64,000 bases of DNA from an uncultured delta proteobacterium (GCA_963793865.1 CAWCBP010000012.1:104986-168985), one strand, 5' to 3'. Positions 36,336 through 59,180 are shown, counted from the first letter of the stretch. The notes: generated from the letters alone by a model not told the origin. Made by a program: numbers and translations.

Positions 36336-36515
36336 AACCACGAAGGACACGAAGGGTAAGGCACGAAGAACACGAAGCGAGAGTCGGAGTAGGACGCGCC
36401 CTGCAGCGTCCTACTGCAAGACTTCTCAGTCATGCACGCACGACTGAGAATTGAAAAGTTCGGAGTCTTTCTTCGTGTGCTCGTTCTTGGCTTTTTCTTC
36501 GTGTGCTTCGTGGTT
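36336..36515 (+). repeat. CACGAAG-armed element copy 1 (isomer I), inside a heptamer-repeat tract 36207..36690
   Basis: AACCACGAAG/CTTCGTGGTT ends, hairpin B 36388..36415, hairpin A 36423..36450. Confidence 0.88.
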
Positions 36516-36577
36516 CAAAAAGCATGGGTCAGGGTCAGTGAAGCTTCCTTGACCAGCATCGTGTATCTTAAAAAGTT

Positions 36578-36597
36578 ATATTTCAAGACCTGACCCC
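36578..36597. repeat. Orphan end of RAYT element 2
   Basis: ATATTTCAAGACCTGACCCC, reverse complement of 49934..49953. Confidence 0.85.
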
Positions 36598-36694
36598 ATT
36601 AGACGTTGACATTTGATTCATCAATTGATAATCGTGATCCCTGACTTTTCTTTTGCCCCTGTTCCCTGAACCCTGACCCCTGCACCCTGCTTTT

Positions 36695-37600
36695 ATGACC
36701 GCCCGTTTTTTAGAACTGGAAATAACCGGCGCCTGTCGCCACCGCTGCCAGCACTGTTACGGTTCCTTTCCCCGGGAAGGAAGCCTTGACCGGGGGACGG
36801 TGATGCGCCTGATCGACGAGGCCCGCGGCAATTTTGACTGCATCATTTTTTCGGGAGGGGAACCATTTCTCCACCCCGATCTCCCGTTCTTCACCCGCTA
36901 TGCGCATGACTTTGTCGTGTTTATTACCACCTCCGGTTACCGCGTGACCGCGGAGCAGGTTCGCGGGTTGCCGGGGAACGTGATCTTGGTTTTCGGGATC
37001 GACGGCATTGGTGAGGTCCATGACCGCTACCGGGGCACGCCCGGGGCTTATGAAGAGCTTATGCGGTTGCTCAAGCAGACCCGGGACCGGCCTAAAGAGA
37101 TCATAACCACTCTCTGGAAGGGCGTTCTGCCCCAGATGGATGCCATGATAGAGCTTGCCGAGGAGCACATGGCCATTCTGCACTTTAATGCCCTGATACC
37201 GGTGGGAAGGGCCCGCTCGAATGCAGAGATCCTGCTTACAAGGGATGAGCAGGAGGCGGTGTATCAGCGCTTGCAGGAACTCAGATTGAATCGCGAGGCG
37301 TCTCTGGCAACGGACCTGTATAAGGTCACCCGGGAAGACAAAGAGGGCATAGACCTGTTCTGCAAGGGGCGGTATTCGGTCAGTCCCGCGGGGGATGTGC
37401 GGCCGTGTGAATTTCATCCCGGCGTGCTGGGCAGCGTCTTCCGGGAATCGCTGGGCTCGATCATGGAGAGGGCGAAACAACATCCTTTCATCCAGGCACG
37501 GGAGAACGGCTTCAGGGAACAGGCGAAGAAGGTTTTGGACAACCCCTTTGACTATCACACGGAGATATGTCACGCGCTGAGCGCACAGCTCCCGTTTTGA
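36695..37600 (+). CDS. Radical SAM protein with SPASM/twitch-like domain
   Basis: CRHRCQHC, SGGEPF, C..YSVSPAGDVRPC. Confidence 0.9.
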   Translation: MTARFLELEITGACRHRCQHCYGSFPREGSLDRGTVMRLIDEARGNFDCIIFSGGEPFLHPDLPFFTRYAHDFVVFITTSGYRVTAEQVRGLPGNVILVFGIDGIGEVHDRYRGTPGAYEELMRLLKQTRDRPKEIITTLWKGVLPQMDAMIELAEEHMAILHFNALIPVGRARSNAEILLTRDEQEAVYQRLQELRLNREASLATDLYKVTREDKEGIDLFCKGRYSVSPAGDVRPCEFHPGVLGSVFRESLGSIMERAKQHPFIQARENGFREQAKKVLDNPFDYHTEICHALSAQLPF

Positions 37601-37622
37601 AGGGATGATCAGGTTCTGTTCA

Positions 37623-37650
37623 GTAGGGGCGACCGGCCGGTCGCCCCTAC
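37623..37650. repeat. REP palindrome copy 4
   Basis: Identical to 4758..4785. Confidence 0.9.
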
Positions 37651-37744
37651 GTTTGGATAAGTGATATGTATGTGCATTCGCCGCCGAAAGCGAGGAATAC
37701 CACTGATATGTTTTCATGCATACTAGTGAAACGGAGGGTAACGG

Positions 37745-38116
37745 ATGAAGAGAACGGTGAAGAGCACCTGCAGCAGGTGCAGCGCGCTGTGCTGCAAATA
37801 TTTTGCCCTGGAGCTGGACAAACCCTCCACCTGGAACGATTTTGAGAACATCCGCTGGTACATCAGCCATCAGAAAACCTCGGTCTTTATCCAGCAGGGG
37901 AGGTGGTTTCTGAACGTGAACAACCGCTGCCGGCATTTAACCGCCGACAGCCGCTGCCGCGTTTATGATCATCGCCCGGCCATTTGCCGTCGGCTGGACG
38001 CGAACGGATGTGAATACCACAATCTGGACGGGGTGCGGGAGATCAGGACGGAGCAGCAGCTGGCGGCATATCTGGCCGAGCGCTCCGCAAAAAGGAAGGT
38101 GAAGAAAAAGAGATGA
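37745..38116 (+). CDS. YkgJ-family cysteine-cluster protein
   Basis: CSRCSALCC, CRHL...CRVYDHRPAICR. Confidence 0.88.
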   Translation: MKRTVKSTCSRCSALCCKYFALELDKPSTWNDFENIRWYISHQKTSVFIQQGRWFLNVNNRCRHLTADSRCRVYDHRPAICRRLDANGCEYHNLDGVREIRTEQQLAAYLAERSAKRKVKKKR

Positions 38117-38203
38117 GGGATGATGTTAAATGACGGGAGGGAAGAAAAAAGACTCAAACCGAAACGATTCGGTTTGAGTCTTTTGCACGATCGCAATGGC
38201 CGG

Positions 38204-39139
38204 TCAGCTGATTGCCGCCCGGGGACAGATATCCTCGCAGATCCTGCATCCGGTGCAGTTGCCGGTAAAGCAGAATGACTTGATTTCCCCCTTTTCCTCC
38301 TTGAGCTCCAGCGCGCAGCAGGGGCAGTTGTCGCAGCACTGACCGCATCCCATGCAGGTCTCCTCATCAATGGTGGGATAGCTCCGGCAGGTCTGGCAGA
38401 GGTTGAACATCTCCGGAGGAAAGATCATCTTGTTTCCCAGCCAGGTCAGCTGCCGTTCCGGGGCGATGGGATTGCCGCATGACTTGCAGAATCTGATGGG
38501 CAATTCCGTCTTCCAGTTCTGCATCAGGCGCTGCGCGCCCAGATTCTGCTCCCCGTCGGCATAGACGACCTGGGCGTTGTCAAAATTCTGCATCTTGATG
38601 ACCTGGGTGGGGCAGACCAGGGCGCAGCTCCCGCAGGCGATGCACTCCTTTGAGCTTTCGTCGAAGGGAACGGCGACCTTCTTGTTGATGCCGCTTCCCT
38701 CGAAGTCAATGGCATTGGCCTGCACCACTTCCGCGCAGGTGCGGACGCACAGCCCGCACAGGATGCAGTATTCGTTCTCCAGGCTGAATTCCTCGGGGAC
38801 GGCGGTGACGCCGACCTCGGCGGCCATGTCCCGTATCTTTTTGGGGTTCGGGCAGCGCGCCAGCAGGAGCTCCATCACCAGCTTTCGGACGTCCTTCACC
38901 CGCTCCGTTTCGGTGGCAACCTTCATCCCGTCCCGGACGAGGTAGTTGCAGGAGGTCTCAATGGTGGTGCGGTCCCCCTGGGTGACCTCCACGCTGCAGA
39001 GCCTGCAGTTTCCCGCCGGCTTGAGCGCGTCGTTGGAGCACAGGTTCGGGATATGGATACCCTCATCCCGGGCGGCCTCCAGAATGGTCCTGCCTTCCTC
39101 TGTTTTGATTTTCTTGCCGTTAATGGTAATGGTTATCAT
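38204..39139 (-). CDS. NuoG/HydA N-terminal-like Fe-S protein with extra ferredoxin domains and no catalytic domain
   Basis: IPNLC..GNCRLC..SC (2Fe-2S), CILCGLC, CIACGSC..CP, CMGCGQC..CP, CTGCRIC..CP. Confidence 0.88.
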   Translation of the reverse strand: MITITINGKKIKTEEGRTILEAARDEGIHIPNLCSNDALKPAGNCRLCSVEVTQGDRTTIETSCNYLVRDGMKVATETERVKDVRKLVMELLLARCPNPKKIRDMAAEVGVTAVPEEFSLENEYCILCGLCVRTCAEVVQANAIDFEGSGINKKVAVPFDESSKECIACGSCALVCPTQVIKMQNFDNAQVVYADGEQNLGAQRLMQNWKTELPIRFCKSCGNPIAPERQLTWLGNKMIFPPEMFNLCQTCRSYPTIDEETCMGCGQCCDNCPCCALELKEEKGEIKSFCFTGNCTGCRICEDICPRAAIS

Positions 39140-39192
39140 GATCTGCCCAACCTCCTCGGATGGTTGCTTGAGGCAGCCTGCCCGGATGCCTG

Positions 39193-40888
39193 TTATCCTT
39201 TGATATAATGGCTGTAGTCAGCGGCAAAGTGCTTCAGGGTTGAAGTTATCACAACCGGAACCGTCTTGCCCAGGGCGCAGAGTGATCCGTCGATCATGGG
39301 CTGTGACATCTGCTTCAGGAGGTCGATGTGCCCCTGTTTGCCCTGTCCCTGGCACAGTTCCCCCACCAGCTCGCACATCTTCTTGACCCCTTCACGGCAG
39401 GTGGTGCACTTGCCGCAGGTCTCCTCTTTAAAGAAATTGAGAAAATAGAGTGCCAGGTCAGCCATGTTGACGCTGTCGTCAATGACGGTAAACCCCGCAC
39501 CCAGGATCGCCCCTGCCTTGTTCAGATCATCATAGGTCAGGGGGAGCTTTACGGACTGCGCCGGCAGGACGCTTCCCGACGGGCCGCCAATGGTGACGGC
39601 CTTCAGCTTCTTCCCCGCGCTCACACCGCCGCCGATGGCGATGATTTCCTCCAGGGTGGTGCCGAGCGGCACTTCCACCAGGCTGGGGCTGGTGATGCTG
39701 CCGTTCAATGAAAGGACCTTGGTCCCGGCATTGCCCTTGGTGCCGATGCCGCTGAACCATTTTCCGCCCCTGGCGATTATGGCGGGAACCATGGCCAGGG
39801 TTTCCAGATTGTTTACCACCGTCGGCTGTCCCCACAGCCCCTTCTGGGCCGGGAAGGGGGGACGCGGACGCGGCTCACCGTAACGGCCTTCCAGGGTGGT
39901 AATGAGCGCCGTTTCCTCGCCGCACACATACCCGCCGCTGCCTTCATCGATGATCACATCAAAGCTGAACGTGCTCCCGAGGATGGCTCCCTCCCAGGAG
40001 TCCATAGTCGTATGCCTGTCGCACCGCCTCCCTGATTTTGGCCAGGGCCGCGGGATAATGGGTGGACACGTAGATGAAACCCTTTGAGGCGCCCACCGCG
40101 TAAGCCGCTATGATCAGGCCTTCCAGAACGGCATGGGGGTCTCCCTCCATCATGCTGCGGTGCATGCCGATGTCCGGGTCACCTTCGCTCCCGTTGGCAA
40201 CCACGTATTTTGTCTCTCCGGCCGCCTCGCTGCAGGTCTTCCACTTGATGCCGGTGGGAAAGCCGGCCCCGCCCCTGCCCCGGAGTCCCGAGGTGATTAC
40301 CTCCTGGATAACCTGCCCGGCCGGCATGGCCAGGGCCGCGGCAAGCGCGCTGTACCCGCCGAAGGCAATGTACTCATCAATGCTGCCGGGATCGATAATG
40401 CCTGCGTTGCGCAGCGCGATCTTCTGCTGCTTCTGGTAAAAGGGATACGAGCCGCGTTCGGGAAGTTCCTTGAGCGGCTGCGGGGCCTCATCGGTACCAT
40501 AGGGAACAGCTTCCCCGGCGATGACGTTTTCCTCGGCATCAGTCCTGAAGAGGGCGTGCTCCTTGAGCACCGATCCGCTCTTGATGGCCTTCACCAGCGC
40601 CGCCGCCTTGTCCGCGGTTACCGCCCCGTAGGTGATCTTCGGCCTTCCCTTCTGGATGACATCGACAATGGGCTCCTGGTAGCACATGCCGTTGCAGCCC
40701 ACCTCGACGATGTCGGCGGCAAGGCCCTGCTTTTTAACCTCGGCTTCCAGTGCCTTCTTTAAAAGATCAGCCCGCCGCGACAGCCCGCAGGTGGAGGTGC
40801 CCACCTGAATCCGCAGCGCCGCCTCGCTCATCTTTTTTCTGGCTTGCGTGCCGAGTGCCTTGAGATCCTTTTCGCTTGTGACCTTCAT
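39193..40888 (-). CDS. NuoF/HydB-like NADH-binding flavoprotein; frameshift near 39990
   Basis: N-terminal 2Fe-2S (GCNGMC), GLRGRGGAGFPTG.KW, YVCGEETAL, ETCGKCTTCREG, SLCALG. Confidence 0.9.
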
Positions 40889-40913
40889 GGTGACTCCCCG
40901 TTTTTGTGGAAAA

Positions 40914-41816
40914 CTACAATTGTCTGATCTTTTCCTGCGCCCAGCCGCCGTCGCCGCATTCACCGTCCACGCTGACCATGGGTTCATGTCCGCAGCACCC
41001 GATGCAGCGCACCTTTTCCAGGGTGAATGTGCCGCCGGCTTTTTGATTGAGCTCATCATACACCCGGCCCGAGTCCTTCAGGTGGCAGGCAAACCCGTCG
41101 CACACCTTGACCACGTGCTGCTTCTTGGGCTCGAGGCTGAAGGCCGGATACGACGTGGCCACCCGGTACACCGCGCTCAGGGGAATGGAGAGCTGCTCGC
41201 TCACCTTGCCGAGCACCACCTTGGGAAGGTGGCTGAATTCCCGCTGCACCTCGTGGAGGAGGGAGAGCAGGGCTTCCTGCTGCCCCTTGTAGCGCGAGAG
41301 TATGGCGTCCGCCTTGCTTACATCGACCCCGCTGCCCGCGGCCAGCAGGTTCATGATCTGGCTCATGAACGGTTCCGGCGGCTTCATTTCCTTGACCGCC
41401 TCAACCACCATATTCTCGGTAACGCTGCCGCCCGGTCCCGCCTTGCCGGCGATGAAATCGAGCAGCTTGGGCCTGACCGCCCCGCGCAGCATTTCCGGGA
41501 TGACGCTCATGATTTTTTCCACCATCTTTTCGCTTTCACCTTCCCAGGACAGCTGGGCCGCGGCCGCCGACTCCTGGGCGGGCGGGGCGCCTGATGTCAT
41601 TCCCAGGGCGCCCATGATCACGCTTTTCTGCGGCTCGGGCAGGTCCTCCCGCACCAGCTTTTCAATGACCGCGTCGGTCACCGGGGCGCCTTTTGCCTTG
41701 CCTTCAATCATGGCAATGAGCTGCGGTTTCATTGCGTCGCGCATCGGCTCAGGGACCACCTCCAGTATCTTGGCAAACGTGGCCTGGGCCTTTTTATCCC
41801 AATTGGAAAGAGCCAT
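40914..41816 (-). CDS. NuoE/HydC-like 2Fe-2S subunit with two N-terminal helical repeats (PCP_red/DUF2621-like)
   Basis: VCDGFACH, RCIGCC; repeats WDKKAQ..VPEPMR and WEGESE..IPEMLR. Confidence 0.85.
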   Translation of the reverse strand: MALSNWDKKAQATFAKILEVVPEPMRDAMKPQLIAMIEGKAKGAPVTDAVIEKLVREDLPEPQKSVIMGALGMTSGAPPAQESAAAAQLSWEGESEKMVEKIMSVIPEMLRGAVRPKLLDFIAGKAGPGGSVTENMVVEAVKEMKPPEPFMSQIMNLLAAGSGVDVSKADAILSRYKGQQEALLSLLHEVQREFSHLPKVVLGKVSEQLSIPLSAVYRVATSYPAFSLEPKKQHVVKVCDGFACHLKDSGRVYDELNQKAGGTFTLEKVRCIGCCGHEPMVSVDGECGDGGWAQEKIRQL

Positions 41817-41827
41817 GATATCCTCCT

Positions 41828-42867: not shown

Positions 42868-42926
42868 AGTGCTTCTCCTTGTAGATGATTGTTTACAATG
42901 TCGATTTGTCGGAGATTAGAGGAGAA

Positions 42927-42956
42927 AATGTATACTATGAGGTGTAATCGTGTCAA
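42927..42956 (-). promoter_or_regulatory. Candidate sigma70 promoter for the porD..nuoG-like operon
   Basis: Minus strand TTGACA-18-TACATT. Confidence 0.5.
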
Positions 42957-43027
42957 GTTTTTTTGTCACGGTAAATCGGCGGGCAGGTCAAAGCATGTAT
43001 GGCGGGATCTTTTCAGCATCCGGAGCG

Positions 43028-43591: not shown

Positions 43592-43600
43592 AGAATCTCC

Positions 43601-44113: not shown

Positions 44114-44173
44114 GATTAGTGCTCCTCATGATATAACACCGCGCGCCGGCAAAAACTTGCTTGGGTGGTCTGC

Positions 44174-45629: not shown

Positions 45630-46679
45630 ATGGAAGAGTTTCTGCTGGGCGATCGTGACAGGCAGATCCTGACATCAGTGATCAATGAATACATACTGAC
45701 CGCGGAGCCGGTTGGGTCGCGCAATATCGCCAGACGATATGACATCAACCTGAGCTCCGCCACCATAAGAAATGTCATGTCCGATTTGGAAGAAATGGGT
45801 TTCCTCCATCAGCCGCACACCTCAGCCGGACGGATTCCCACCGAAAGGGCGCTCCGCTTCTACGTGGACAGCATTTTGAAGGTAAAGAGCCTGGATCAGC
45901 GGGAGAAGGACCGCATCCGGAAGCGGTATAAATTTTCCGAGCTGGAGGCGTCCGACCTTGTCCGGCAGACATCGGAGGTGCTCTCGGTGCTTTCCCGCCA
46001 CGTCAGCATTGTCTCGGCGCCCAAGCTGGTGGGAACGGTTCTCAAGCACATCGAGTTCATCAAGATAAGCAGGGACCGCATTCTGGTTATTTTTGTTTCC
46101 CAGTCGGGGTTTGTGCAGAACCGGATCATAGAAGACAGGGACGATATTTCCCAGTCGGAGCTGGACAAGTATACCAACTACCTGGGGGAGGTCCTGGTGG
46201 GGGTGAGCCTGGAGGGGGTGCGCGGGAAGATTGAAGAGGAGATGAAAAAGGAAAAGACGGCCTACGACCGGCTGCTCTCAAATGCGCTGGAATTAACCCG
46301 GAAGGTGTTCGGCAAGGAAAAAGATCCGGAACTCTTCATGGAGGGCCAGGTCAATCTCCTGGAATGCCCGGAGTTTTCCGAGGTGGGCAGCATGAAATTG
46401 CTCCTGCAGGCCCTTGAAGAAAAGAAGCTGCTCCTGCATCTTCTGGACAAGACCATGGATGCCGAGGGCATTCAAATCTTTATCGGATCCGAGGTGCCGG
46501 TCTCGGAAATGCAAACCCTGAGCGTCATCACCTCTCCCTACCGGCATGGTGAAAAGGTGGTGGGCGCGCTGGGTATTATCGGGCCCACCCGGATGAACTA
46601 TCTCAAGCTCATACCCATTGTTGAGTATTCTGCCCAGCTGCTTACCGAGTTCCTCAACGGCAAGGGCAGCGAGCTATAA
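45630..46679 (+). CDS. hrcA: Heat-inducible transcription repressor
   Basis: EPVGS, SSATIRN.M.DLE, QPHTSAGRIPT, GIIGPTRMNY. Confidence 0.96.
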   Translation: MEEFLLGDRDRQILTSVINEYILTAEPVGSRNIARRYDINLSSATIRNVMSDLEEMGFLHQPHTSAGRIPTERALRFYVDSILKVKSLDQREKDRIRKRYKFSELEASDLVRQTSEVLSVLSRHVSIVSAPKLVGTVLKHIEFIKISRDRILVIFVSQSGFVQNRIIEDRDDISQSELDKYTNYLGEVLVGVSLEGVRGKIEEEMKKEKTAYDRLLSNALELTRKVFGKEKDPELFMEGQVNLLECPEFSEVGSMKLLLQALEEKKLLLHLLDKTMDAEGIQIFIGSEVPVSEMQTLSVITSPYRHGEKVVGALGIIGPTRMNYLKLIPIVEYSAQLLTEFLNGKGSEL

Positions 46680-46698
46680 TATATATAAGGAGTGCCGT

Positions 46699-47307
46699 AT
46701 GACCAGGAAAAAGCATGATCCCGAAGTTGATGGAACGCCGGCAGGCGGGGAAGCAGGCGCCGCCGCGCCGACGGGCGGGCCGGAGGGTGAGGATGCCGGC
46801 GCTCACGGCAAGCGGGCGACCATAAAGAAGCTGGAGGAGGAACTGAAGGCCGGGGAGGAGGAGATTAAAAGCCTCAATGACCGGCTGCTCAGGACCCTCG
46901 CGGAGTTTGAAAATTTCAAGAAGCGGGCCGCCCGGGAAAAAAGCGAGCTGCTGCAATATGCCAATGATGAGATGAGCAAGGAGATGCTGCGGACGGTGGA
47001 CAACCTTGAGAATGCCATCCGGCACGCCCGGGAAGGCAGCCAGGCGGAGAGCATCATCGAAGGTGTTGAGATGACCCTGAAGCAGCTGCTCAAGAGCCTG
47101 GAACGGTTCGGCGTATCCGGCTTCAATTCCCTGGGAGAGAAGTTTGATCCCAACAGGCACGAGGCGATGCTGCAGGTGGAGAGCGCGGACCATGAGCCCA
47201 ACACCATAATCGATGAGGCGCAGAAAGGATACTTCCTGCGCGAACGGCTGCTGCGCCCGGCCCAGGTCACGGTGTCACGGGAGCCGCAGGAGGCGGCGGA
47301 GGAATAG
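46699..47307 (+). CDS. grpE: Nucleotide exchange factor GrpE
   Basis: AEFENFKKR, DNLE.A, FDPNRHEAM, KGY...RLLRPA.V. Confidence 0.95.
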   Translation: MTRKKHDPEVDGTPAGGEAGAAAPTGGPEGEDAGAHGKRATIKKLEEELKAGEEEIKSLNDRLLRTLAEFENFKKRAAREKSELLQYANDEMSKEMLRTVDNLENAIRHAREGSQAESIIEGVEMTLKQLLKSLERFGVSGFNSLGEKFDPNRHEAMLQVESADHEPNTIIDEAQKGYFLRERLLRPAQVTVSREPQEAAEE

Positions 47308-47364
47308 GAGGAGAAGAGAGAAGCTGTCAATGGTCCACGGTCCACAGTCCACAGGAAATGATGC

Positions 47365-47542
47365 AACCACGAAGGGCACGAAGGAAGCACAAGAGCACGA
47401 AGCACGGGTCGGAAAGGACGCGACCTGCCGCGTCCTACTGCTAAACTCTCAGTCGTGCACGCACGACTGAGAATTGAAAAGTTCAGAGCTGTTTTTTTCT
47501 TCGTGTGCTCGTTCTTGGTTTTTCTTCGTGATCTTCGTGGTT
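47365..47542 (+). repeat. CACGAAG-armed element copy 2 (isomer I), followed by heptamer tracts to ~47725
   Basis: Same ends and core as 36336..36515. Confidence 0.88.
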
Positions 47543-47741
47543 GAAAATAGACAGTTGGGATCAGGGTCAATAGACAGTTTACAGTTGATGTGTGCCGGTT
47601 TACAGGAGCCCTTTAGTAATCCTCGTTTGGAACATTTGTGCTTTGAAATTTGGATTTGTTTCGGATTTCGTGCTTCGGATTTCGGATTTGTCTTTCATCC
47701 TGCATCGTGCATCCTGTATCATGCATTCCCCGTAGAACTGT

Positions 47742-48809
47742 ATGCCTGCCACCGAGCTTGATTATTATGAAATACTGGGCGTGCCGCCCACGGCAAGCCA
47801 GCGGGAGATAAAAAGAGCCTTTCGCCGCCTCGCACTGCTCCATCATCCCGACCGCAATCCCCACGACAAAAAATCAGAAGAGAAGTTCAAGGAAATATCG
47901 GAAGCATACGGGATTTTAAACAACCCGCAGAAAAGAAACGCCTACGATGAGCGCACAGCCTCGGCGAAGCGCGCAGCCGATGATGTCGGCCGGTCCGCCG
48001 GAAGTGATTTCACCGGCCCCATACCTTCCAACGACCTGCTCAGGGATGTTTTCCGGGACATCCTGGGGTTCCCCATCAGGGGCCGACAGAAGGGGCAGAA
48101 AGGCGAGGACCTGAGATACCACCTTTCCATTACCTTTGAAGAGGCCGCGCTGGGCAGGCAGGTTGAAATAAAAATACCCTCTTACACGCCGTGCCCGGCG
48201 TGTAAGGGGCTGAAAATGAAACCCGGCAGCCGGTTGAAGCAGTGTCCCCTGTGCAAGGGGAAGGGCCGGGCAAAAGCGATGCGGAGGAAAGGCACACCGG
48301 AGGTGGTGTGCAAAAAATGCGGGGGAACGGGAAAGATCGCGCGGCAGCCCTGCGCCTGCTGCAGGGGCACGGGCTGCATGCGGCAGACCCGCATCCTTGC
48401 CTTCAGCATTCCCCCCGGCGTCAGGACCGGCTCGCGTCTGAAGGTGCTTAACCGGGGAAACCCGGGCAGCAACGGGGGGCCGGCAGGCGATCTCTATATT
48501 GTGCTCAACGTTAATCCCCATCCCTTTTTAGAGCGGGACGGCGATGATATTGTTTTCCACCTGGACATCAGCTTCTCGCAGGCAAGCCTCGGAGGCCGGG
48601 TGACGGTGCCCACGCTGGACGGGGAGGTTGAAATGGACATACCCCCCGGGACGCAGCCCGGCGATGTTTTGCGCATCAAGCACCGGGGCATTTCCTCTCC
48701 CCGGGGATCCGGTCGGGGTGACCAGCAGATCGTCATACAGGTGACCACACCCTCCAGATTAACCGCGCGGCAAAAAAATCTCCTGAAGCAATTTGCCCGG
48801 ATGGATTAG
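47742..48809 (+). CDS. dnaJ: DnaJ-class co-chaperone
   Basis: DYYEILGV, HPD, four CxxCxG zinc motifs, GDLY, GDQ. Confidence 0.9.
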   Translation: MPATELDYYEILGVPPTASQREIKRAFRRLALLHHPDRNPHDKKSEEKFKEISEAYGILNNPQKRNAYDERTASAKRAADDVGRSAGSDFTGPIPSNDLLRDVFRDILGFPIRGRQKGQKGEDLRYHLSITFEEAALGRQVEIKIPSYTPCPACKGLKMKPGSRLKQCPLCKGKGRAKAMRRKGTPEVVCKKCGGTGKIARQPCACCRGTGCMRQTRILAFSIPPGVRTGSRLKVLNRGNPGSNGGPAGDLYIVLNVNPHPFLERDGDDIVFHLDISFSQASLGGRVTVPTLDGEVEMDIPPGTQPGDVLRIKHRGISSPRGSGRGDQQIVIQVTTPSRLTARQKNLLKQFARMD

Positions 48810-49931: not shown

Positions 49932-50960
49932 TTGGGGTCAGGTCTTGAAATATCAGTTTTGGCGGGGACATGATGTGAGACCCGTTATGCGCTGCTGAGC
50001 AGGAGAAACAGACGATGACCAATGATTGACAATGTCGGGTCAGGTCTTGAAATATAAGCACTGTTCTGCTATGGTGCCTTCATGGCCAGACCATTGCGAA
50101 TAGAATACCCGGGTGCTGTTTATCACGTAACAAGCAGGGGCAATGCCCAGGGAATAATATTTAGCGATAATCAGGACCGGCTCAGCTTTCTGGACGTGCT
50201 GGCCGGTGTGGTTAAACGCTACCGCTGGTTATGCCATGCCTATTGTCTGATGGGTAATCACTATCATCTGCTGGTTGAAACGCAGGAAGCGAACCTGTCC
50301 CTGGGTATGCGCCAACTCAACGGAGTTTATACCCAGAGATATAACCGCAGGCATAAAAAATCCGGTCACGTTTTTCAAGGGAGGTTTAAGGCAATAGTGC
50401 TGGATAAAGACAGCTATTTGCTTGAACTGTGCCGCTATGTGGTATTGAATCCGGTGCGTGCGAAGATGGTCAAAAATGTGGAAGAGTGGCAATGGAGCAG
50501 CTACCGGGCCACTGTGGCAATGATCAAACCTCCCGATTACCTCACCACGGATTGGATCCTGGGTCTATTCAGCAGCAAGCGCGGGATTGCGCGGAGGAAA
50601 TATAAGAGTTTTGTCAAAGAAGGGTTGCATCAACAGTCACCCTGGGGTTTGCTGAGAGGGCAGGTGTTGCTGGGAGAGGAAAAATTTGTAAAAGGATTTA
50701 AAGCACTGCTTTCTGACAAAGATCAGGTAAAAGAGATACCGCGGCAGCAGCGCCACGTGGCCCGACCAGGGCTTGAAGAACTGTTTCAGAAAAGGGTATC
50801 GGGAAAACAGAGGAACAAAAACATCTATGCAGCCCACATGAAGTATGGGTATAAACTCTATGAAATTGCAAACTATCTGCAAATCCACTATACTACGGTG
50901 AGTAAAATCATTGCAAAGGAAGAAGGACCGCAAGACTGATAATTCAAGACCTGACCCCAA
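49932..50960. mobile_element. RAYT element 2 with GGGGTCAGGTCTTGAA inverted ends (left end doubled)
   Basis: Left copies 49932..49953 and 50037..50055; inverted copy 50943..50960. Confidence 0.82.
50082..50939 (+). CDS. REP-associated tyrosine (Y1 HUH) transposase with C-terminal HTH
   Basis: MARPLR..YHVTSRGN, LMGNHYHLL, GHVFQGRF, YVVLNPVRA, WSSY. Confidence 0.93.
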   Translation: MARPLRIEYPGAVYHVTSRGNAQGIIFSDNQDRLSFLDVLAGVVKRYRWLCHAYCLMGNHYHLLVETQEANLSLGMRQLNGVYTQRYNRRHKKSGHVFQGRFKAIVLDKDSYLLELCRYVVLNPVRAKMVKNVEEWQWSSYRATVAMIKPPDYLTTDWILGLFSSKRGIARRKYKSFVKEGLHQQSPWGLLRGQVLLGEEKFVKGFKALLSDKDQVKEIPRQQRHVARPGLEELFQKRVSGKQRNKNIYAAHMKYGYKLYEIANYLQIHYTTVSKIIAKEEGPQD

Positions 50961-50984
50961 GGAAATGACCCCAAGGAAAAATTC

Positions 50985-52032: not shown

Positions 52033-52159
52033 GGAGGGTGCAGGGGCAGAAAGGAGGGTACAGGGTTCAGGGACCAGGGTCAAAGAATACAGTTGACGGT
52101 TGACAGTTTACAGCAGAGCACTCTTTAACCGTCGACTGCTGACTGTAAACTGTCTTTTG

Positions 52160-52353
52160 AACCACGAAGGGCACGAAGGGAAAGACACGCACGAAGGGCA
52201 CGAAGAAAGAATCTGAAACTTTGCAAATGTTATTTCTCAGTTGCGCATGCGCAACTGAGAAGTCTTGCAGGAAGGACGCAGCAGAGCGCGTCCTTCCTTG
52301 ACTTTCGTTGACTTCGTGTGCTTCGTGAGCTTTTCTTCGTGATCTTCGTGGTT
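52160..52353. repeat. CACGAAG-armed element copy 3 (isomer II)
   Basis: Hairpin A TTCTCAGTTGCGCATGCGCAACTGAGAA then hairpin B AGGAAGGACGC/GCGTCCTTCCT. Confidence 0.88.
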
Positions 52354-52429
52354 CAAAAACAGGGTGTAGGGTCAGTGAGGCTGCATTGACCTGCATCATG
52401 CATCCTGTATCATGCATCTTTTCCCTCGC

Positions 52430-53917
52430 TTACAGCTCCGAATTCACCTTGTATCCTCCCTGTGCCTTGGAGCGATACAGCACCTTATCCGCCTTGCGCA
52501 CCAGCGTGTGCTCGTTGCCCACGATATCACTGGTGATGTCGGCAACGCCCGTGCTTACCGAGATGGTGTAGTTTGAGCTGTCTATGTTCACCGGGTGGTT
52601 GCTGATATTTTTTTTGAGCCGCTCCGCCAGTATGGCCGCTTCCTCCGCCTTTGTTTCCGGCAGGATGACGGCGAACTCGTCCCCTCCGTAGCGCGCCAGG
52701 AAATCTATTTCCCGGATGGAGCCCTGAAGCTGTGAGGCCAGTGTTTTAAGCACGCTGTCGCCGGCCTCATGTCCATAGGTGTCGTTGATGGCCTTGAACC
52801 CGTCGACATCGAGCATGATGAGCGAGAGGGGCTTCTGGTACCGCTTTGATCTGCGCAGCTCCCTGTCCAGCACCTTCTGAAAGGCCCTGCGGTTATAAAC
52901 GCCGGTCAGCTCATCGGTAATGGCCAGCGACTGGGCCTTCTGGTGCTCTGCGGCATTTTTCAGCGCCAGCGCAACCTGGTTGGCGATGGTTGATACAAGC
53001 TGCAGCTGCTTTTTGCCCAGTCTCTTGGCGCCGGCGAGGCCCATCATCCCCAGCACATTGCCGGCCACCTTGAGCGGAATAAAAAACGTGTTATCCCCGG
53101 CCGGGGACGGTTTCTCGGCATGGGCCCGGTGATGGCACTTTATTTTTATCACCCTGGTTTGAATATCGCTTTCGACCAGCTTTTTTCCGCTGTAGCGCGC
53201 ATATTCCCCGATGGATTCGCGGGTGAGCTGCTCCACGATCTCGACTTTCAGGGGGGTGGCGCAGGTGCATATGGTCAAAAACAGCTCCTCCCCCAGCGCG
53301 TAGAAAAAAAGTACCAGGTCATTGACGATCAGCTCGCTGAACTTGCCGCCGGCGACCTTTTCCACCATCTTGTGCGCGTCCAGGGTTGAATTGATCTGCA
53401 GGCTCAGCTGATTGAGCAGGGTGAGTTCCTGGTTGATCTTTTTGAGCGAGAGCTTCTCTTTTCTGAGCTTCTCGCTCTGCCTTTTAAGCTCACTGTTGGT
53501 TTTTTTCAGCCTGCTGTCAATCTCCAGGATTTTCATAAGCGCCCGCCTGCTCTCGAGCCCCTTATGAACCACGTCTTTCAGCTGGCTGCACACGATGGGC
53601 TTGGTAATAAAACTGAAAGCCCCTTCCTGCATGGCCGAGACGATGGTCCTGAGGTCCGGTTTATCGGCCATGAAAATGACGCAGCTCTTGTAGCACGAGG
53701 ATTGGATGTCCTTTAAAATATCGATCCCGCTGAATGCGGGCATCCTCTGTTCAACAAAAATGAGGTCAAAATCATTTAAACTCCTGTGCAGTTTTTCCAG
53801 CGCCAGCTTTGAATCGGAGGCCTCCTCTACATGCAGCCCCATCTTTTTAAGCGCGCGGGATAATTTGCTTACGTTGTCCAAATCATTGTCTATAATCAGT
53901 ACACTATGCGTTTCCAT
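52430..53917 (-). CDS. Diguanylate cyclase (REC, coiled coil, GAF-like, GGDEF)
   Basis: DELTG.YNRR, D.FK.IND.YGH, REID..ARYGGDEF. Confidence 0.92.
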   Translation of the reverse strand: METHSVLIIDNDLDNVSKLSRALKKMGLHVEEASDSKLALEKLHRSLNDFDLIFVEQRMPAFSGIDILKDIQSSCYKSCVIFMADKPDLRTIVSAMQEGAFSFITKPIVCSQLKDVVHKGLESRRALMKILEIDSRLKKTNSELKRQSEKLRKEKLSLKKINQELTLLNQLSLQINSTLDAHKMVEKVAGGKFSELIVNDLVLFFYALGEELFLTICTCATPLKVEIVEQLTRESIGEYARYSGKKLVESDIQTRVIKIKCHHRAHAEKPSPAGDNTFFIPLKVAGNVLGMMGLAGAKRLGKKQLQLVSTIANQVALALKNAAEHQKAQSLAITDELTGVYNRRAFQKVLDRELRRSKRYQKPLSLIMLDVDGFKAINDTYGHEAGDSVLKTLASQLQGSIREIDFLARYGGDEFAVILPETKAEEAAILAERLKKNISNHPVNIDSSNYTISVSTGVADITSDIVGNEHTLVRKADKVLYRSKAQGGYKVNSEL

Positions 53918-53957
53918 GGCGACCCCCACTATATAAATATGCTTACATGAAAGATTG

Positions 53958-53973
53958 AGCATATTCTATGCCA
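53958..53973 (-). promoter_or_regulatory. Candidate sigma54 promoter for the diguanylate cyclase
   Basis: Minus strand TGGCATAGAATATGCT (GG-N10-GC), ~40 bp before the ATG, AT-rich upstream. Confidence 0.6.
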
Positions 53974-54230
53974 TGGTCATAAATAGTTATAATCGCTGGG
54001 ATAATAGACCCGGATTCTTGTAATTAACTGTATTTTATAGATTATTTTAAAGAGGAGTGGGGGGTATTTTTTAGTGATACGTGCAAATAATAGTCAAAAT
54101 TATGTTATGTGCCATTATTTTGACTATTAGCGAGGTTAGATTGAGGAGAAAAGATGCACGATACAGGATGCACGATCAGGAAAAGAGGCCTCTCTAACCC
54201 TGATCCCTGACCCCAGTACCCTGTTTTTTA

Positions 54231-54438
54231 AATCACGAAGCCCACGAAGAAAAACCAAGAACGATCACGAAGAGAGACACACGAAGCACTTCAAAGTTAA
54301 AGAAGGACGCGCTCTGCCGCGTCCTTCTTGCAAGTCTTCTCAGTCGCGCATGCACGACTGAGAAACGACAAGGACAAAGTTTCGGGATCTTTCTTCGTGA
54401 TCTTCGTGCTTATCTTTTCCTTCGTGCCCTTCGTGGTT
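54231..54438. repeat. CACGAAG-armed element copy 4 (isomer II)
   Basis: Hairpin B AGAAGGACGC/GCGTCCTTCT, hairpin A TTCTCAGTCGCGCATGCACGACTGAGAA. Confidence 0.86.
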
Positions 54439-54518
54439 CAAATCTGCAAGTTTACAGTTGACGGTTAGTAGTTGACAGGAACTCTCCTGCATCGTGCATC
54501 ATGTACTCCTGCTATACC

Positions 54519-55547
54519 CTACCCCCTCTCTTTTAGCATCTCGCACAATTCCTTTATCCTCTTCGGCGTGGGCAGATGATAGGGGCATTTTTCAACGCAC
54601 TTCCCGCAGGCATCGCACAGCTCAAGCTGGGGCAGCATCCGCTTTGCCATCTCCAGCGTGTAGGCAATATTGTCGTTCATCTCCCTGCCATAGGCCATGA
54701 GGTGGATCATGTGCGCGAAAGGAATCATGATGCCCTTTTCGCAGGGCATGCAGTAGCTGCAGCGGCGGCAGAAATCCTTTCCCAGTTCGGCGACTTCTTC
54801 TCCCAGCTGTTTAAGCTCTTCAGCGGAGAGGGGCTTCCCTTCCTCCATCACCTTCCAGTTGGCGTCAACCTCCTGTACCGATGACATTCCCGGCGTTATC
54901 ACCCCGATGGGATGGCTGAGAAAAAATCGCAACGCCAAGGGTTTGTTTTCGATCATGCCTCCTGCCAGGGGTTTCATTACCGATGTCGCAACTTCCAGCC
55001 GGTTGGCGGTGTCGAGCAGGGTTTGCAGCGGCTCCTGTTCGATGACGTTGAAGGGAAACATGCTCATGGCGAACTCGCCCGTTTTGAGCGCCTCGGTCAT
55101 GGTGACCGGGTTGTGACCGGTGATGGCGATGTGCCTGATCCTGCCCTTTTTCTGCGCCTCTTTCAGGAATGAAAGCGGCTCCTTCATCACCGCGGCCAGC
55201 TCCGGCGGCTGGTTCACCGCGTGAAAGCCGTAGAAGTCGATGGTCTCGAGCTTCAGGCGATCAAAGCTCTGCTCGAAATCCTTTTTAAAGGCGTCAAACC
55301 CCATCTTCCAGGAGTGGGACCGGGACAGAATGGTAAAATCGCTTCGCTTGATGGTTGAGAGCACCCTTCCCAGCTTCTCCTCACTGTCCTGGTAGGCCGA
55401 TGCCGTGTCGAAGTAATTGATGCCCTTCTCCAGGGCCCTCCTGACGGTCTTGTCTGATTCCTCTTTGGAGACGCGCGGAATGTACATTGCACCGAACCCG
55501 AGCTGCTTCACCTTGATACCGGTCTTTCCAAGAGTGATGACCTTCAT
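54519..55547 (-). CDS. Aldo/keto reductase with C-terminal 4Fe-4S domain
   Basis: GINYFDTA..Y..SEE, MKPLAGG, CRRCSYCMPC, CDACGKC...CP. Confidence 0.92.
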   Translation of the reverse strand: MKVITLGKTGIKVKQLGFGAMYIPRVSKEESDKTVRRALEKGINYFDTASAYQDSEEKLGRVLSTIKRSDFTILSRSHSWKMGFDAFKKDFEQSFDRLKLETIDFYGFHAVNQPPELAAVMKEPLSFLKEAQKKGRIRHIAITGHNPVTMTEALKTGEFAMSMFPFNVIEQEPLQTLLDTANRLEVATSVMKPLAGGMIENKPLALRFFLSHPIGVITPGMSSVQEVDANWKVMEEGKPLSAEELKQLGEEVAELGKDFCRRCSYCMPCEKGIMIPFAHMIHLMAYGREMNDNIAYTLEMAKRMLPQLELCDACGKCVEKCPYHLPTPKRIKELCEMLKERG

Positions 55548-55710
55548 TTTCAGCCTCCCTGAACATTTTTATGTCTATGCATTCGTAGGTGTAAGAATCG
55601 TGAACCTTGGAAAGAATAACATATCTCAGGATTTTCTTGTAACAAATTTCCTTGGTCCACAGGCAGTTTAATCCATCAATTAATTGGACGCGGCCGCGGG
55701 TCATAGCGGG

Positions 55711-55798
55711 TCGTAGCCGCAGGCTGTAGTCGCAGGCTTCAGCCTGCGTAAACACTGTGCCTGCGGAAGAATTCGCAAGCTAAAGCTTGCGGCTACGA
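55711..55798. repeat. GTAG REP-like doublet
   Basis: TCGTAGCCGC..GCAGGCTTCAGCCTGC..GCAAGCTAAAGCTTGCGGCTACGA. Confidence 0.78.
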
Positions 55799-55906
55799 CT
55801 GATCCCCCAAAATGTCCAATGTCAAGGGCTGCCCCGAAGGGAGGGCTGAATCTTAGTATTCAGCAGCAAGGACCATGGACCGTAAACCCTGCGCCCACAA
55901 AAACTA

Positions 55907-55926
55907 ATATTTCAAGACCTGACCCC
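55907..55926. repeat. Orphan end of RAYT element 2
   Basis: ATATTTCAAGACCTGACCCC. Confidence 0.85.
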
Positions 55927-55960
55927 ATCCACATCGTAAGAATTGGACAAACTGCGTTTT

Positions 55961-56188
55961 GAACCTAGGTTTAAGAACACGAAGGGAAAGAAGGAGCACG
56001 AAGTTCACGTCAAGAGGATTAACCCTGAATACTTTGCACAAAATTGTCATTTCTCAGTTGACCGCATGTGGCTGCGCACCGCAGAAACTGATCTTGCAAG
56101 ACGGACCCCACAGCGCGCGTCCTTCTGTAACTTTCTCTTCCTTCGTGATCTTCGTGGTCAGTCGTTTTTCTTCGTGCTCTTCGTGGTT
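55961..56188. repeat. CACGAAG-armed element copy 5 (isomer II, degraded or error-rich)
   Basis: TTCTCAGTTG.., TCTTGCA, GCGCGTCCTTCT and CTTCGTGGTT end recognisable. Confidence 0.7.
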
Positions 56189-56281
56189 AATGATTTTGGA
56201 CATTGTGTGGTTTAGATATTGGGATTTAGGATTTGTCTTCCACCCTGCACCCTTACCCCTGAACCCTGTCCCCTCAAAAAT

Positions 56282-58057
56282 CTAATCGGTAAACAAATAA
56301 ACACTTCCCTCCTGGCTGCCCACCAGCAGGTCCTGCCTGCCGTCGTTGTCCCAGTCGATGAGGAAGGGAACCGCCGAGCCGTCAACGGCGATGCGCTCAT
56401 CATTCATCTTGATCAGGCCGGCGGCGATGAACTGCGGCGTGGAGCCGGTGCTGACATTGAGATAGAGATGGATGTACCCGTCTCCGTCCCCGATCAGCAG
56501 GTCCGGCTTGCCGTCACCGTTCCAGTCAGCCATGAAGGGAGCGGCAAAGCTTCCCACATCAATCGGCGCGCCGTCCGCCATGACCGCCTCCGGCGGTGAG
56601 AGGCGGGGCTTGCTGTCGGTTCCTTCATTGAGATACAGCGAAAGGGTGCCCTCGCCGCTGCCTGCAAGCAGGTCCTTTTTGTTGTCCCCGTTCCAGTCAA
56701 CCACCTGCGGCATGCAGTAGCTGCCGACGTTAATCTCCTCCCCGGCGGCATCCCTGACCACCGCAGAAGCCCTGTAAACAGGCATGGCGTTGCTGCCCCG
56801 GTTGGTGAATGCTATGAGATAGCCCTCACCGGTTCCCGCCAGGAGGTCCTGTGCCCCGTCATTGTTGTAGTCGAGCACAAACGGAGCCGCGTTGCTGCCG
56901 ACGCTGATGACCTCATCGTTTGCCGTGAGCAGGCGGTGGTCGCCAAATGCCGGGTTGTCATCCGTGCCGGTATTGGTGAAAAGGGCGATGGTGCCGTCCT
57001 TGTTTCCCACCAGCAGGTCTTTGCCGCCGTCCAGATCATAGTCCACCACGAAGGGGCAGGCGCCTTGTCCGACGGAAATCGGCTGATCGTTGGCGGTAAG
57101 CTGCCGGACCTGGCTGAAGGCGATTCCCGCGAACGGCGTCAGGGTGATGGCGTAGATGTCTGTTGTCAGCCGGGAGAAATCAATGACCCGGTAGTGGTCG
57201 GCGAATCCCGGGTAGGTAAGGCGCAGCACCTGCTTGCCCGGGATGGCCTGGTTGAACAACTGGGGGGTGTTCCCGGAATAAATGCCGAGGTAGGCATAAT
57301 TGCCGTTCCAGTAAATTTTGGCATCCGTCGGCAGCGAGACAATCTTGACCGGCGCGTAATCCAGCTCCAGGGCTTGGGTGGCGGTGTTACCTGCCAGGTC
57401 CTCCGCGACAAGGGTGAGGCGATTTCTGCCCGGAACCAGATGCGCGCGGGCGGAGAAAATCCCATTGGCGGAGCTGATACTTGCATCATCATTGTTCAGC
57501 TTGAGAAATTTCAGGTTCGGCTCCTCAAAGGTCCCGCGTATGGTGACCGACGCGAACCGGGTCTTGGCCGGTGAGGGCAGGGGCTCAATCTCGATGCGGG
57601 GCTGCTGCTGGTCGCAAATAAGGAGGTTGCTTTGTGGAGACAAGGGTGAAGAAACCCCGGCGGGCGATACGGCAGCCACCGACAGCTTGTATGAGTGGTT
57701 ATGCTCGCATTTGAGCTGGTATTCAGGTCCCGGTGACGTGGCCTGCTTTACCATGGTGATGCCGCCCGTGCCGCCTGAACCCGGGAAAAACCGGGTGTCG
57801 CGTATTTCCAGCGCATAGTGGTCTACGGCGCCGGCCGGGGGTTGCCACACGGTCCTGACCAGGTCCTGGTTGGTGTATTGGACCGTTTCCGCGTAGCGCG
57901 GAAGAGCCCCGATGATAACTGTTATCACCAGGTAGGCAATGATGACAAAGGACAGAAATAAAAGGTCCCTCCAGACAGGGAAGTAGCGGAGTATGCTTTT
58001 TATCCTGGCATACGCGCGGTCAAAAAAGGTCACTTTTAAAAGGTGATTTTGTGCCAT
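56282..58057 (-). CDS. Membrane-anchored FG-GAP/VCBS repeat protein with FN3/Ig-like domains
   Basis: Five P.V.D(W/Y)N.DG..DLL.G..G repeats; TM near N-terminus. Confidence 0.88.
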   Translation of the reverse strand: MAQNHLLKVTFFDRAYARIKSILRYFPVWRDLLFLSFVIIAYLVITVIIGALPRYAETVQYTNQDLVRTVWQPPAGAVDHYALEIRDTRFFPGSGGTGGITMVKQATSPGPEYQLKCEHNHSYKLSVAAVSPAGVSSPLSPQSNLLICDQQQPRIEIEPLPSPAKTRFASVTIRGTFEEPNLKFLKLNNDDASISSANGIFSARAHLVPGRNRLTLVAEDLAGNTATQALELDYAPVKIVSLPTDAKIYWNGNYAYLGIYSGNTPQLFNQAIPGKQVLRLTYPGFADHYRVIDFSRLTTDIYAITLTPFAGIAFSQVRQLTANDQPISVGQGACPFVVDYDLDGGKDLLVGNKDGTIALFTNTGTDDNPAFGDHRLLTANDEVISVGSNAAPFVLDYNNDGAQDLLAGTGEGYLIAFTNRGSNAMPVYRASAVVRDAAGEEINVGSYCMPQVVDWNGDNKKDLLAGSGEGTLSLYLNEGTDSKPRLSPPEAVMADGAPIDVGSFAAPFMADWNGDGKPDLLIGDGDGYIHLYLNVSTGSTPQFIAAGLIKMNDERIAVDGSAVPFLIDWDNDGRQDLLVGSQEGSVYLFTD

Positions 58058-58184
58058 AACTTTAATTACCTTTTTTTAAACCACGAAGCGCACGAAGAAA
58101 AAATCACGAAGATCACGAAGGGGCTCCTGTAAACTGTGAACCGTCAACTGTAAACTGTCTTTTGACCCTGCTCCCTGTATTTTT

Positions 58185-58369
58185 CACCACGAAGACTCAC
58201 GAAGAAAAAGCCAAGAATGAGCACACGAAGAAAGACTCCTAACTTTTCAATTTTCAGTCGTGCGTGCACGACTGAGAAGTCTTGCAGTAGGACGCGGCAG
58301 GGCGCGTCCTACTTAGACACTTGTTTGCTTCGTGCTCTTCGTGCTTTACCCTTCGTGCCCTTCGTGGTT
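58185..58369 (-). repeat. CACGAAG-armed element copy 6 (isomer I), extra arm at 58079..58120
   Basis: Reverse complement of the 36336 architecture. Confidence 0.88.
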
Positions 58370-58854
58370 CCATCATTTTCTTTAGACAGTGGACGCTCCT
58401 TGTTGCAACCGTCAACTGTAAACTCCTGACCCCTGCCCCCTGGTCCCTGTATTTTCCTGATAAGACTGTTTATGGCCTGGGCGAGCCGGTAAAACTCATC
58501 ATGCTTTCGCAGCTTGATTTCCTGCACCTTTTCTCCCGAAGCCAGCGCTTCGAGGATGCGCTCGAACTTGTAAATCGGGCCGGCGATCCGGTGGGAGATG
58601 AAAACACTTATGATGGCAATGGCAAAGATGAGCAGCAGGCTGCGCACAAAGATCTTGGAGGTTATGGCATATTTGATGACGGCCAGGCTTTCGCCGTGGA
58701 ACTGGTTGACCAGGGTTTGCATCACTGCGGTGTAGATGCTCAAGCCCGTGACCACGGCAATAAGCACCATGGCTATGATGATGACCGCCATGAACCTGAT
58801 CTGGAATCCCCGTTCCACCATGAACTTCTTTCGGACGACCTTTTGATGAGCCAT
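58309..58854 (-). CDS. Small two-TM protein with HAMP-like domain
   Basis: RKKFMV..FQ.RF, SHRIAGPIYKF, LRKHDEF; tail reads into repeat DNA. Confidence 0.8.
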   Translation of the reverse strand: MAHQKVVRKKFMVERGFQIRFMAVIIIAMVLIAVVTGLSIYTAVMQTLVNQFHGESLAVIKYAITSKIFVRSLLLIFAIAIISVFISHRIAGPIYKFERILEALASGEKVQEIKLRKHDEFYRLAQAINSLIRKIQGPGGRGQEFTVDGCNKERPLSKENDGTTKGTKGKARRARSKQVSK

Positions 58855-58991
58855 AGAATTTGAGCCTCAGATGTCAGTTCGACAACATGAACCACGAAGC
58901 GCACGAAGCGAGACAACCACGAAGATCACGAAGGGCCTCCTGTAAACTGTCAACCGTCAAATTTTGCCCCTGAACCCATCCCTGTTTTTTC

Positions 58992-59180
58992 AACCACGAA
59001 GATCACGAAGAAAAAGCCAAAAAACGAGTTCACGAAGAAAGAAAGACTCTGAACTTTTCAATTTTCAGTCGTGCGTGCACGACTGAGAAGTCTTGCAGTA
59101 GGACGCGGCAGGGCGCGTCCTACTTCGACCCTGTTTGCTTCGTGTTCTTCGTGCACGTACCCTTCGTGCTCTTCGTGGTT
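58992..59180 (-). repeat. CACGAAG-armed element copy 7 (isomer I), extra arm at 58890..58933
   Basis: Core nearly identical to 58185..58369. Confidence 0.88.

Follow-up and report, generated by a model that had tools for sequence, protein, structure and literature searches.

Intergenic twin-hairpin repeats with inverted CACGAAG arms in a deltaproteobacterial genome, and their possible kinship with GxxExxY gene cassettes

The DNA considered here is a stretch of 64,000 nucleotides from an uncultured delta proteobacterium (GCA_963793865.1, CAWCBP010000012.1:104986-168985), hereafter termed the window and numbered from its first letter. Alongside protein-coding genes, two Y1 transposase genes and other repeats, it carries a family of short intergenic elements in which inverted arms, built from units of the heptamer CACGAAG, enclose a core of two hairpins that we designate A and B. 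A first-pass annotation, made from the sequence, had described seven copies of this element and proposed that their structure is maintained, either as a single-stranded DNA substrate of a transposase or as a structured RNA family. We describe the element, the occurrence of its arms in other genomes and their association with genes for GxxExxY proteins, and weigh what these observations suggest about its origin.

Anatomy and conservation of the elements

The window contains 62 occurrences of the heptamer CACGAAG, compared with 7.0 expected (standard deviation, 2.9; largest count in any shuffle, 15), and 57 of the 62 cluster into nine blocks, all located between 36.3 and 59.2 kb, that resolve into seven full elements and two solo arms (Table 1). 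The solo arms had been overlooked previously; the seven elements, with inverted CACGAAG arms around hairpins A and B, were correctly recognized, one of them (copy 5) proving degenerate. Full elements are intergenic and span 178-228 bp, with an overall length of roughly 190 bp. Each arm comprises two to four heptamer units, mostly paired 9 bp apart, and ends in (T)nGAACC, the right arm being inverted. The core consists of hairpin B, with a 10-bp stem, and hairpin A, a perfect palindrome of 12-13 bp. Hairpin B was found in all seven copies, and the half-site of hairpin A gave 12 matches, two per copy in six of the seven, where 0.33 were expected. On the + strand B precedes A in three copies (36335, 47365 and 54231) and follows it in four. 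The location reported earlier also holds: all copies lie within 23 kb, and each has one end that either overlaps the 3' terminus of a gene or of an open reading frame (ORF) fragment or lies 57-132 bp away from it. Motif scans revealed no further copies in the window. Inverted terminal arms, small size and the lack of coding capacity together give the elements the anatomy of a miniature inverted-repeat transposable element (MITE); the only ORFs overlapping them are antisense or read-through predictions, none of which matches a family convincingly.

Table 1. Element copies, solo arms, Y1 transposase units and array mosaics of the window. A and B denote the two hairpins; TIR, terminal inverted repeat.
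Feature	Position	Strand	Order on + strand	CACGAAG units	Hairpin A	Hairpin B	Remarks
Copy 1	36335..36516	+	B then A	4 + 3 (exact)	36423-36450	36388-36415	
Copy 2	47365..47542	+	B then A	3 + 3	47446-47473	47412-47439	Between grpE and dnaJ; hairpin B with two mismatches and a G-T at its foot
Copy 3	52159..52354	-	A then B	4 + 4	52234-52261	52270-52297	Hairpin B of the GGAAGGACGC variant
Copy 4	54231..54439	+	B then A	4 + 4	54337-54364	54301-54328	Hairpin B of the AGAAGGACGC variant
Copy 5	55961..56188	-		left arm, 2 exact	disrupted by insertion	56099-56126	Degenerate; 2 mismatches in hairpin B
Solo arm	58079..58120	+		4			Left end of the 292-bp composite that continues through an AAACTGT module into copy 6
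Copy 6	58185..58370	-	A then B	3 + 4	58251-58278	58286-58313	Hairpin B in the GTAG form
Second solo arm	58889..58933	+		4			Left end of the second composite
Copy 7	58992..59181	-			59062-59089	59097-59124	Near-twin of copy 6 (94 nt, 96% identity), a similarity recorded as repeat family D19
Y1_Tnp TIRtron	24094..25174	+					Gene 24172-25155, 327 aa; 31-nt TIR 24094-24124 / 25144-25174, 100%
Y1_Tnp TIRtron	49932..50960	+					Gene 50082-50939, 285 aa; 30-nt TIR 49932-49961 / 50931-50960, 93%, beginning GGGGTCAGGTCTTGAA
Mosaic regions	36203-36330, 36520-36700, 47546-47745, 52040-52158, 54160-54230, 54440-54520, 56190-56280, 59182-59235						Also at 330-490 of locus L069, from another record

The composite 58079-58370, consisting of a solo arm, an AAACTGT module and copy 6, recurs at 58889-59181. 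Similarity between the two begins at AACCACGAAG and ends at CTTCGTGGTTC, beyond which the flanks are unrelated. A duplication bounded exactly by arm ends is the trace that would be expected from moving a unit defined by those ends.

Folding gave z-scores of -10.5 for the element as DNA and of -9.3 and -7.8 for its two strands as RNA; in the predicted single-strand fold, a long stem formed by the arms closes a junction that bears hairpins A and B. The stem variants quoted earlier as compensating changes are all present, but they are few in number and statistically weak. In hairpin B both sides change in two of ten pairs (A-T to G-C; T-A to A-T) and 94.3% of cells are paired; in hairpin A both-side changes affect two of 12 pairs (C-G to T-A; T-A to C-G), both in copy 3, with 94.4% of cells paired and a single half-changed pair in copy 4. 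The covariation scores, which kinship among sequences alone can lift above those of shuffles without any structure, were reached in 20 of 500 shuffles for hairpin B (eight rows, seven distinct, the eighth being a copy at locus L069 described below and the other seven those of the window) and in 23 of 500 for hairpin A (seven rows, six distinct, copy 5 being omitted because of its insertion). Unpaired cells number seven over the distinct rows counted, or eight if the identical twin copy is included.

A stronger sign of constraint than covariation is the contrast in pairwise identity among parts of the element: 82-83% in the hairpins, compared with 59% in the spacers of the arms, 54% in the linkers, and 96% in the heptamer columns, the last value being partly circular because those columns were picked by the heptamers themselves. 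The 2-nt spacers of opposite arms, read from the sequence, are mostly non-complementary. From these contrasts it follows that the heptamer itself, and not pairing alone, is constrained. The earlier proposal of a maintained structure in mobile DNA thus stands insofar as the element is a self-complementary interspersed repeat whose hairpins are better kept than its linkers; its transposase, palindrome-family and RNA-family components fared otherwise, as set out below.

Heptamer arrays in other genomes and the GxxExxY gene

We scanned 185,579 species genomes with the pattern CACGAAGNNCACGAAGN{5,30}CACGAAG, which places three heptamers in the spacing seen in the window, and obtained at least 124 loci, where by our own arithmetic over 596 Gb about seven would be expected by chance. 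Judged by record title, the loci listed include Acidobacteriota, Chloroflexota, Planctomycetota, alpha-, beta-, gamma- and deltaproteobacteria, Verrucomicrobiota, Gemmatimonadota and others. Convergent arm pairs, 54 in all, occur in 50 of the 124 listed loci; they share the terminal signature and enclose unrelated cores, often a GC-rich hairpin. Spacings of 9 bp account for 303 of 490 between units, at least 124 of these being forced by the search pattern; the dinucleotide AC precedes the outermost unit in 70 of 171 arrays, and the terminal GAACC/TCACC recurs across phyla. The arms are therefore a module found across phyla, an inverted array of heptamers with the consensus CRCRRAG. The hairpins are a different matter: L069, also from an uncultured deltaproteobacterium, is the only listed locus with the same hairpins A and B as the window, and its copy is flanked by the same set of further short arrays as the window copies. 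Genes flanking the listed loci belong to unrelated housekeeping families (Pfam; 200 flank ORFs), as expected for dispersed repeats, and no regulon is apparent. A blastn search of plasmids with copy 3 gave no match. Some array loci proved to be coding repeats with a 9-bp period and were set outside the element class, for example L024, which lies in a cation-efflux protein (Pfam), and apparently L090, where we found an open frame only and no Pfam match. At positions 501-1830 of L025, a metagenome-assembled genome of Vicinamibacterales, about eight CACGAAG-armed elements, one of them containing a masked run of N, follow each other head to tail every 155-230 bp in the manner of a bacterial interspersed mosaic element cluster.

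A single protein family, PDDEXK_3, was found between or directly abutting arrays among the 200 flank ORFs (E-values 3e-42 at L004 and 9e-35 at L122); the recurrent domains Response_reg and adh_short are those of ordinary neighbours. At 372-764 of L122 (Vicinamibacterales) a gene of 131 aa lies exactly between a forward (258-356) and a reverse (770-864) CACGAAG array, and in L004 (Syntrophobacter) the gene comes after a complete mini-element. Both proteins match TIGR04256, "GxxExxY protein". A profile search of the listed loci added two remnants, a truncated gene copy abutting an array in L068 and decayed fragments between the arms in L081.

In the reverse direction, GxxExxY genes were picked without reference to repeats, by a tblastn search of plasmids with the L004 protein, which gave eight records. 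The four closest genes are flanked by inverted arrays with a 9-bp period, built of CACAGAG (Bacteroides and Bernardetia), CGCAGAG (Gemmatirosa) or CGCGAAG (Sphingomonas) and ending in TTCACC or GAACC, and these four cassettes are squeezed in between neighbouring genes, fabD and fabG for example. Gene-bearing relatives whose ends carry the same or a sister heptamer are thus present in other genomes (L122, L004 and L125-L128). In Gemmatirosa two megaplasmids carry a gene-less mini-hairpin, one at no fewer than 40 places and the other at 39, compared with three places holding the gene on one of them. A tblastn search of phages with the protein gave no match.

The GxxExxY family is very large, with about 70% identity across phyla; of 8000 candidates scored, 7997 attained E<=1e-10. 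Across 18 sequences, residues G..E..Y, D67 and E77-x-K79 do not vary. The predicted structure (predicted local distance difference test score, 93.6) resembles PD-(D/E)XK nucleases most closely among folds of the PDB, with lambda exonuclease (probability 0.99) followed by Cas4 and Hjc; a sequence search of the PDB with the protein found none, and PADLOC gave only a weak match to Cas4 (E 0.003). The protein is assigned a PD-(D/E)XK nuclease fold, in which D...ExK is conserved. The table of a PD-(D/E)XK survey (PMC3424549) gives the function of the family as "Unknown", and we found nothing about repeats among the papers listed under GxxExxY, PDDEXK_3, PF13366 or TIGR04256. Searchable papers yielded no description of heptamer arrays or of their association with this gene; among the papers listed, queries for a CACGAAG repeat or for the arm ends showed only primers and eukaryotic or unrelated matches, and those for double heptamers returned none. 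The heptamer is likewise absent from the main texts, as distinct from figures and supplements, of Di Nocera 2013 (PMC3733652) and Quentin 2018 (PMC6006769).

Origin and movement of the elements

The explanation towards which we lean, as probably though by no means certainly correct, is that the seven window copies are gene-less, non-autonomous derivatives of a family of GxxExxY-cassette elements, comparable to MITEs or to paired repetitive extragenic palindromes (REPINs), that are moved in trans. It draws on the anatomy of the copies, the spread of their arms, the nuclease genes between such arms, the excess of gene-less copies in one genome and the arm-bounded duplication; the step that moves the element we infer. 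The window copies would have lost, or never had, the GxxExxY gene, and a lineage-specific core of hairpins A and B would stand in its place. A GxxExxY nuclease encoded elsewhere in the genome might recognize the heptamer arrays, the extruded hairpin or both, and the predicted enzyme could then move the gene-less element in trans. Hairpins would be kept if propagation is confined to copies that can still fold, whether as single strands or as cruciforms. We entertain more tentatively, and with greater doubt than conviction, the general proposition that CRCRRAG inverted arrays with a GxxExxY gene of 125 aa constitute a pan-bacterial selfish cassette, working like the associations of REPs (repetitive extragenic palindromes) with their transposases but built on an enzyme of restriction-endonuclease fold, with gene-less derivatives in many phyla, of which the window holds seven with a private, foldable twin-hairpin core.

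In the terms of the cassette family named here, the window copies have inverted arrays of CRCRRAG heptamers about 9 bp apart, ending in GAACC/TCACC, and no GxxExxY gene was seen between their arms. They resemble bacterial MITEs such as Correia/NEMIS, RUP, ERIC and Nezha, named in PMC3733652, in being non-coding sequences of 180-230 bp with terminal inverted repeats and strong folding potential, placed intergenically beside genes. Longer relatives with similar ends and a gene occur in other genomes, although none was found in the window. They differ from these in that a target-site duplication was not found, the inverted repeats are built of tandem heptamers, and the gene-bearing relative encodes a nuclease-fold protein and not a DDE transposase. 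With REPtrons, the systems of REPs or REPINs and their REP-associated tyrosine transposases (RAYTs), they share the form of short multi-copy extragenic palindromes in either orientation, often in operons, the far greater number of gene-less copies relative to a single-copy nuclease-type gene that the repeats themselves flank, and, in some copies, a hairpin B that starts with GTAG. The candidate partner, however, is a PD-(D/E)XK (GxxExxY) protein and not a Y1 HUH transposase, and whereas REPs are species-specific, the element ends are heptamer arrays with 9-bp spacing that are nearly the same across phyla. The window copies lack a palindrome of 20-40 bp with a constant GTAG at one end, and neither the window nor the 124 listed loci yielded a cognate RAYT bounded by such REPs.

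Several observations weigh against derivation from GxxExxY cassettes. Only four of the 124 listed loci carry the gene or a remnant, two of them remnants, and neither tblastn nor a profile search found a GxxExxY homologue in the window; because the window alone was searched, the proposed partner is so far unseen in this organism. Four of the eight plasmid GxxExxY genes have different flanking repeats, and the Gemmatirosa copy is frameshifted. Protein similarity does not follow heptamer type: the L004 protein (CACGAAG) is 52% identical to that of Bacteroides (CACAGAG) and only 38% identical to that of L122 (CACGAAG). None of the fold matches reached E<=0.001. The junctions of the seven copies and of both composites, where the boundary is uncertain by a few bases, show no target-site duplication. 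Hairpin covariation is real but thin with seven or eight copies, and is suggestive, not significant, because the copies are few, some cells are unpaired and related sequences can beat shuffles. Finally, GxxExxY genes might insert into pre-existing palindromes.

This last point belongs to a wider alternative, in which the arrays are host palindromes, or arrays bound by a host protein, that serve as landing pads where GxxExxY genes and small repeats preferentially insert. The position of the gene beside complete mini-hairpins in L004 and L125, and not inside one, would suit such an origin, as would the absence of a visible target-site duplication and the nesting of several array types in the intergenic regions of the window. 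A preference for pre-existing sites is nevertheless hard to reconcile with a duplication bounded exactly by arm termini, with the same terminal GAACC/TCACC in different phyla, or with unrelated flanking genes and no apparent regulon, and we judge it quite improbable.

The first-pass annotation had instead named the two Y1 genes of the window, as RAYTs, as partners of the element, and had likened hairpin B to a GTAG REP. Extended, this would make the element a REP- or BIME-like substrate of a Y1 (HUH) transposase, with hairpin B cleaved in single-stranded form by a RAYT or TIRYT while the arms serve as iteron-like sites for a helix-turn-helix domain. HUH Rep proteins do use short direct repeats beside a nicking hairpin (geminivirus, circovirus, pMV158), and both Y1 proteins possess a C-terminal helix-turn-helix region, that of the 327-aa protein being weakly Bac_DnaA_C-like (E 5.5e-4, below the cut-off); that the heptamers are DnaA-box-like sites for this domain is speculation. 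Solo copies of the repeat of the 49932-50960 TIRtron lie at 36582-36597 and 55911-55926, beside element copies 1 and 5, which recalls the TIRtrons whose terminal repeats are also dispersed. The start of hairpin B, however, reads GTAG in only three of eight aligned rows (three of the seven window copies), GAAG or AAAG in the other five, L069 included, and hairpin A lacks GTAG. Moreover, each Y1 gene is bounded by its own long TIRs (GGGGTCAGGTCTTGAA... and GGGGACGTTGTTGAC...), which resemble neither the CACGAAG arms nor the hairpins and mark separate elements. Such TIRtrons of the TIRYT type, with long terminal inverted repeats and a GGGGWSAS motif, are described in the main text of Di Nocera 2013 (PMC3733652); in the window GGGGTCAG fits this motif and GGGGACGT is off at one position. 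For TIRYT, or subclass 2.1, genes, the main texts of PMC3733652 and Quentin 2018 (PMC6006769) report that no REPs were found nearby. Both window genes are thus complete TIRYT-type TIRtrons and are not part of the CACGAAG element. No Y1 gene was detected within the 300-500 bp flanking the 124 listed array loci (best tblastn E, 0.75). The two genes were ruled out as partners by their unrelated repeats and by this absence, and we regard Y1-mediated movement in general as very unlikely.

Somewhat less remote, though still unlikely, is a role in transcripts, the arm stem being a site for RNase III or insulating cistrons from one another and the hairpins stabilizing or processing the mRNA. In 23S rRNA intervening sequences, inverted repeats on either side of a small ORF pair into a stem in the transcript; unlike these, the arrays have no rRNA context, and no S23p-type (PF05635) gene occurs among the 200 flank ORFs. 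An RNA module would account for the placement of every copy near a 3' end, several between genes that run in the same direction (grpE and dnaJ, for example), for the strength of the predicted RNA folds on either strand, and for the order B then A in the mRNA sense in four of five co-directional copies; GxxExxY cassettes also occur inside operons (fabD-fabG), and the arms resemble Shine-Dalgarno sequences on their purine strand. Yet both orientations occur, and an exact heptamer maintained across phyla despite free spacers is not expected from pairing alone. Half-changed pairs are not biased to G-U on the sense strand (two of six). Rfam gave no match to the window at the gathering score, the sole match at E<=1 being STnc320 (25.3 bits against a cut-off of 50), and nothing above threshold for 26 array loci, whose long hairpins attract only sub-threshold resemblances to microRNA precursors. 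No promoter- or terminator-like site was found inside the element in the one intergenic region scanned, no run of T follows hairpin A or B in the copies read by eye, and a search for tRNA and tmRNA found none. These results tell against the structured RNA family suggested in the first-pass annotation.

If derivation from GxxExxY cassettes is correct, the large orphan GxxExxY/PDDEXK_3 family would gain a testable role as the engine or a passenger of a mobile element, and a class of intergenic repeats that lies outside Rfam in many phyla would be accounted for. In practical terms, arrays of this kind can interrupt assemblies, give rise to spurious ORFs and cut genes short, and knowledge of the family should aid annotation.

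Neighbouring genes and further repeats of the window

The intergenic regions that hold the elements are patchworks in which further short tandem arrays of 7-bp period are nested in one another (Table 1): CAGGGTN/CCCTGNN, the AAACTGT/ACAGTTT module (family D20), GTCCACR, TGCATCV and CGGATTT/AAATCCG. Arrays of the AAATCC and ACAAATCG types likewise border the GxxExxY genes of L129 and L132, and the mosaic arrays may be the arms of further element families. Tandem heptamers that fill intergenic DNA are known in the cyanobacterial short tandemly repeated repetitive sequences; to our knowledge these differ in sequence from CACGAAG and are not known as arms of palindromic elements.

Genes around the elements show several irregularities. 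A HAMP-domain ORF of 181 aa (58309-58854, - strand) extends 62 nt into copy 6 and appears truncated, and the ORF that follows it (59239-59643, - strand) is a 134-aa fragment with an F5/8 type C domain; the region between the two composites looks like one of gene decay. Around copy 2 (45630-48809) the order is hrcA, grpE, element, dnaJ. In the usual operon dnaK lies between grpE and dnaJ, a place it does not occupy here; relatives whose HrcA is 98-99% identical exist. On the - strand at 39193-41059, a gene resembling Nuo51/NADH-dehydrogenase F is represented by two overlapping ORFs, with the Complex1_51K domain split at 39959-40005, which could reflect a frameshift or a sequencing error.

Coding repeats of other kinds occur elsewhere in the window. 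Two ORFs at 16391-19552 (- strand), without a Pfam match, consist of 45-bp repeats (16 copies, family D1), and include blocks of 300 bp duplicated at a distance of 3.2 kb; tandem repeats of about 475 bp at 60270-63720 (families D2, D3 and D6) encode CBM60 carbohydrate-binding modules.

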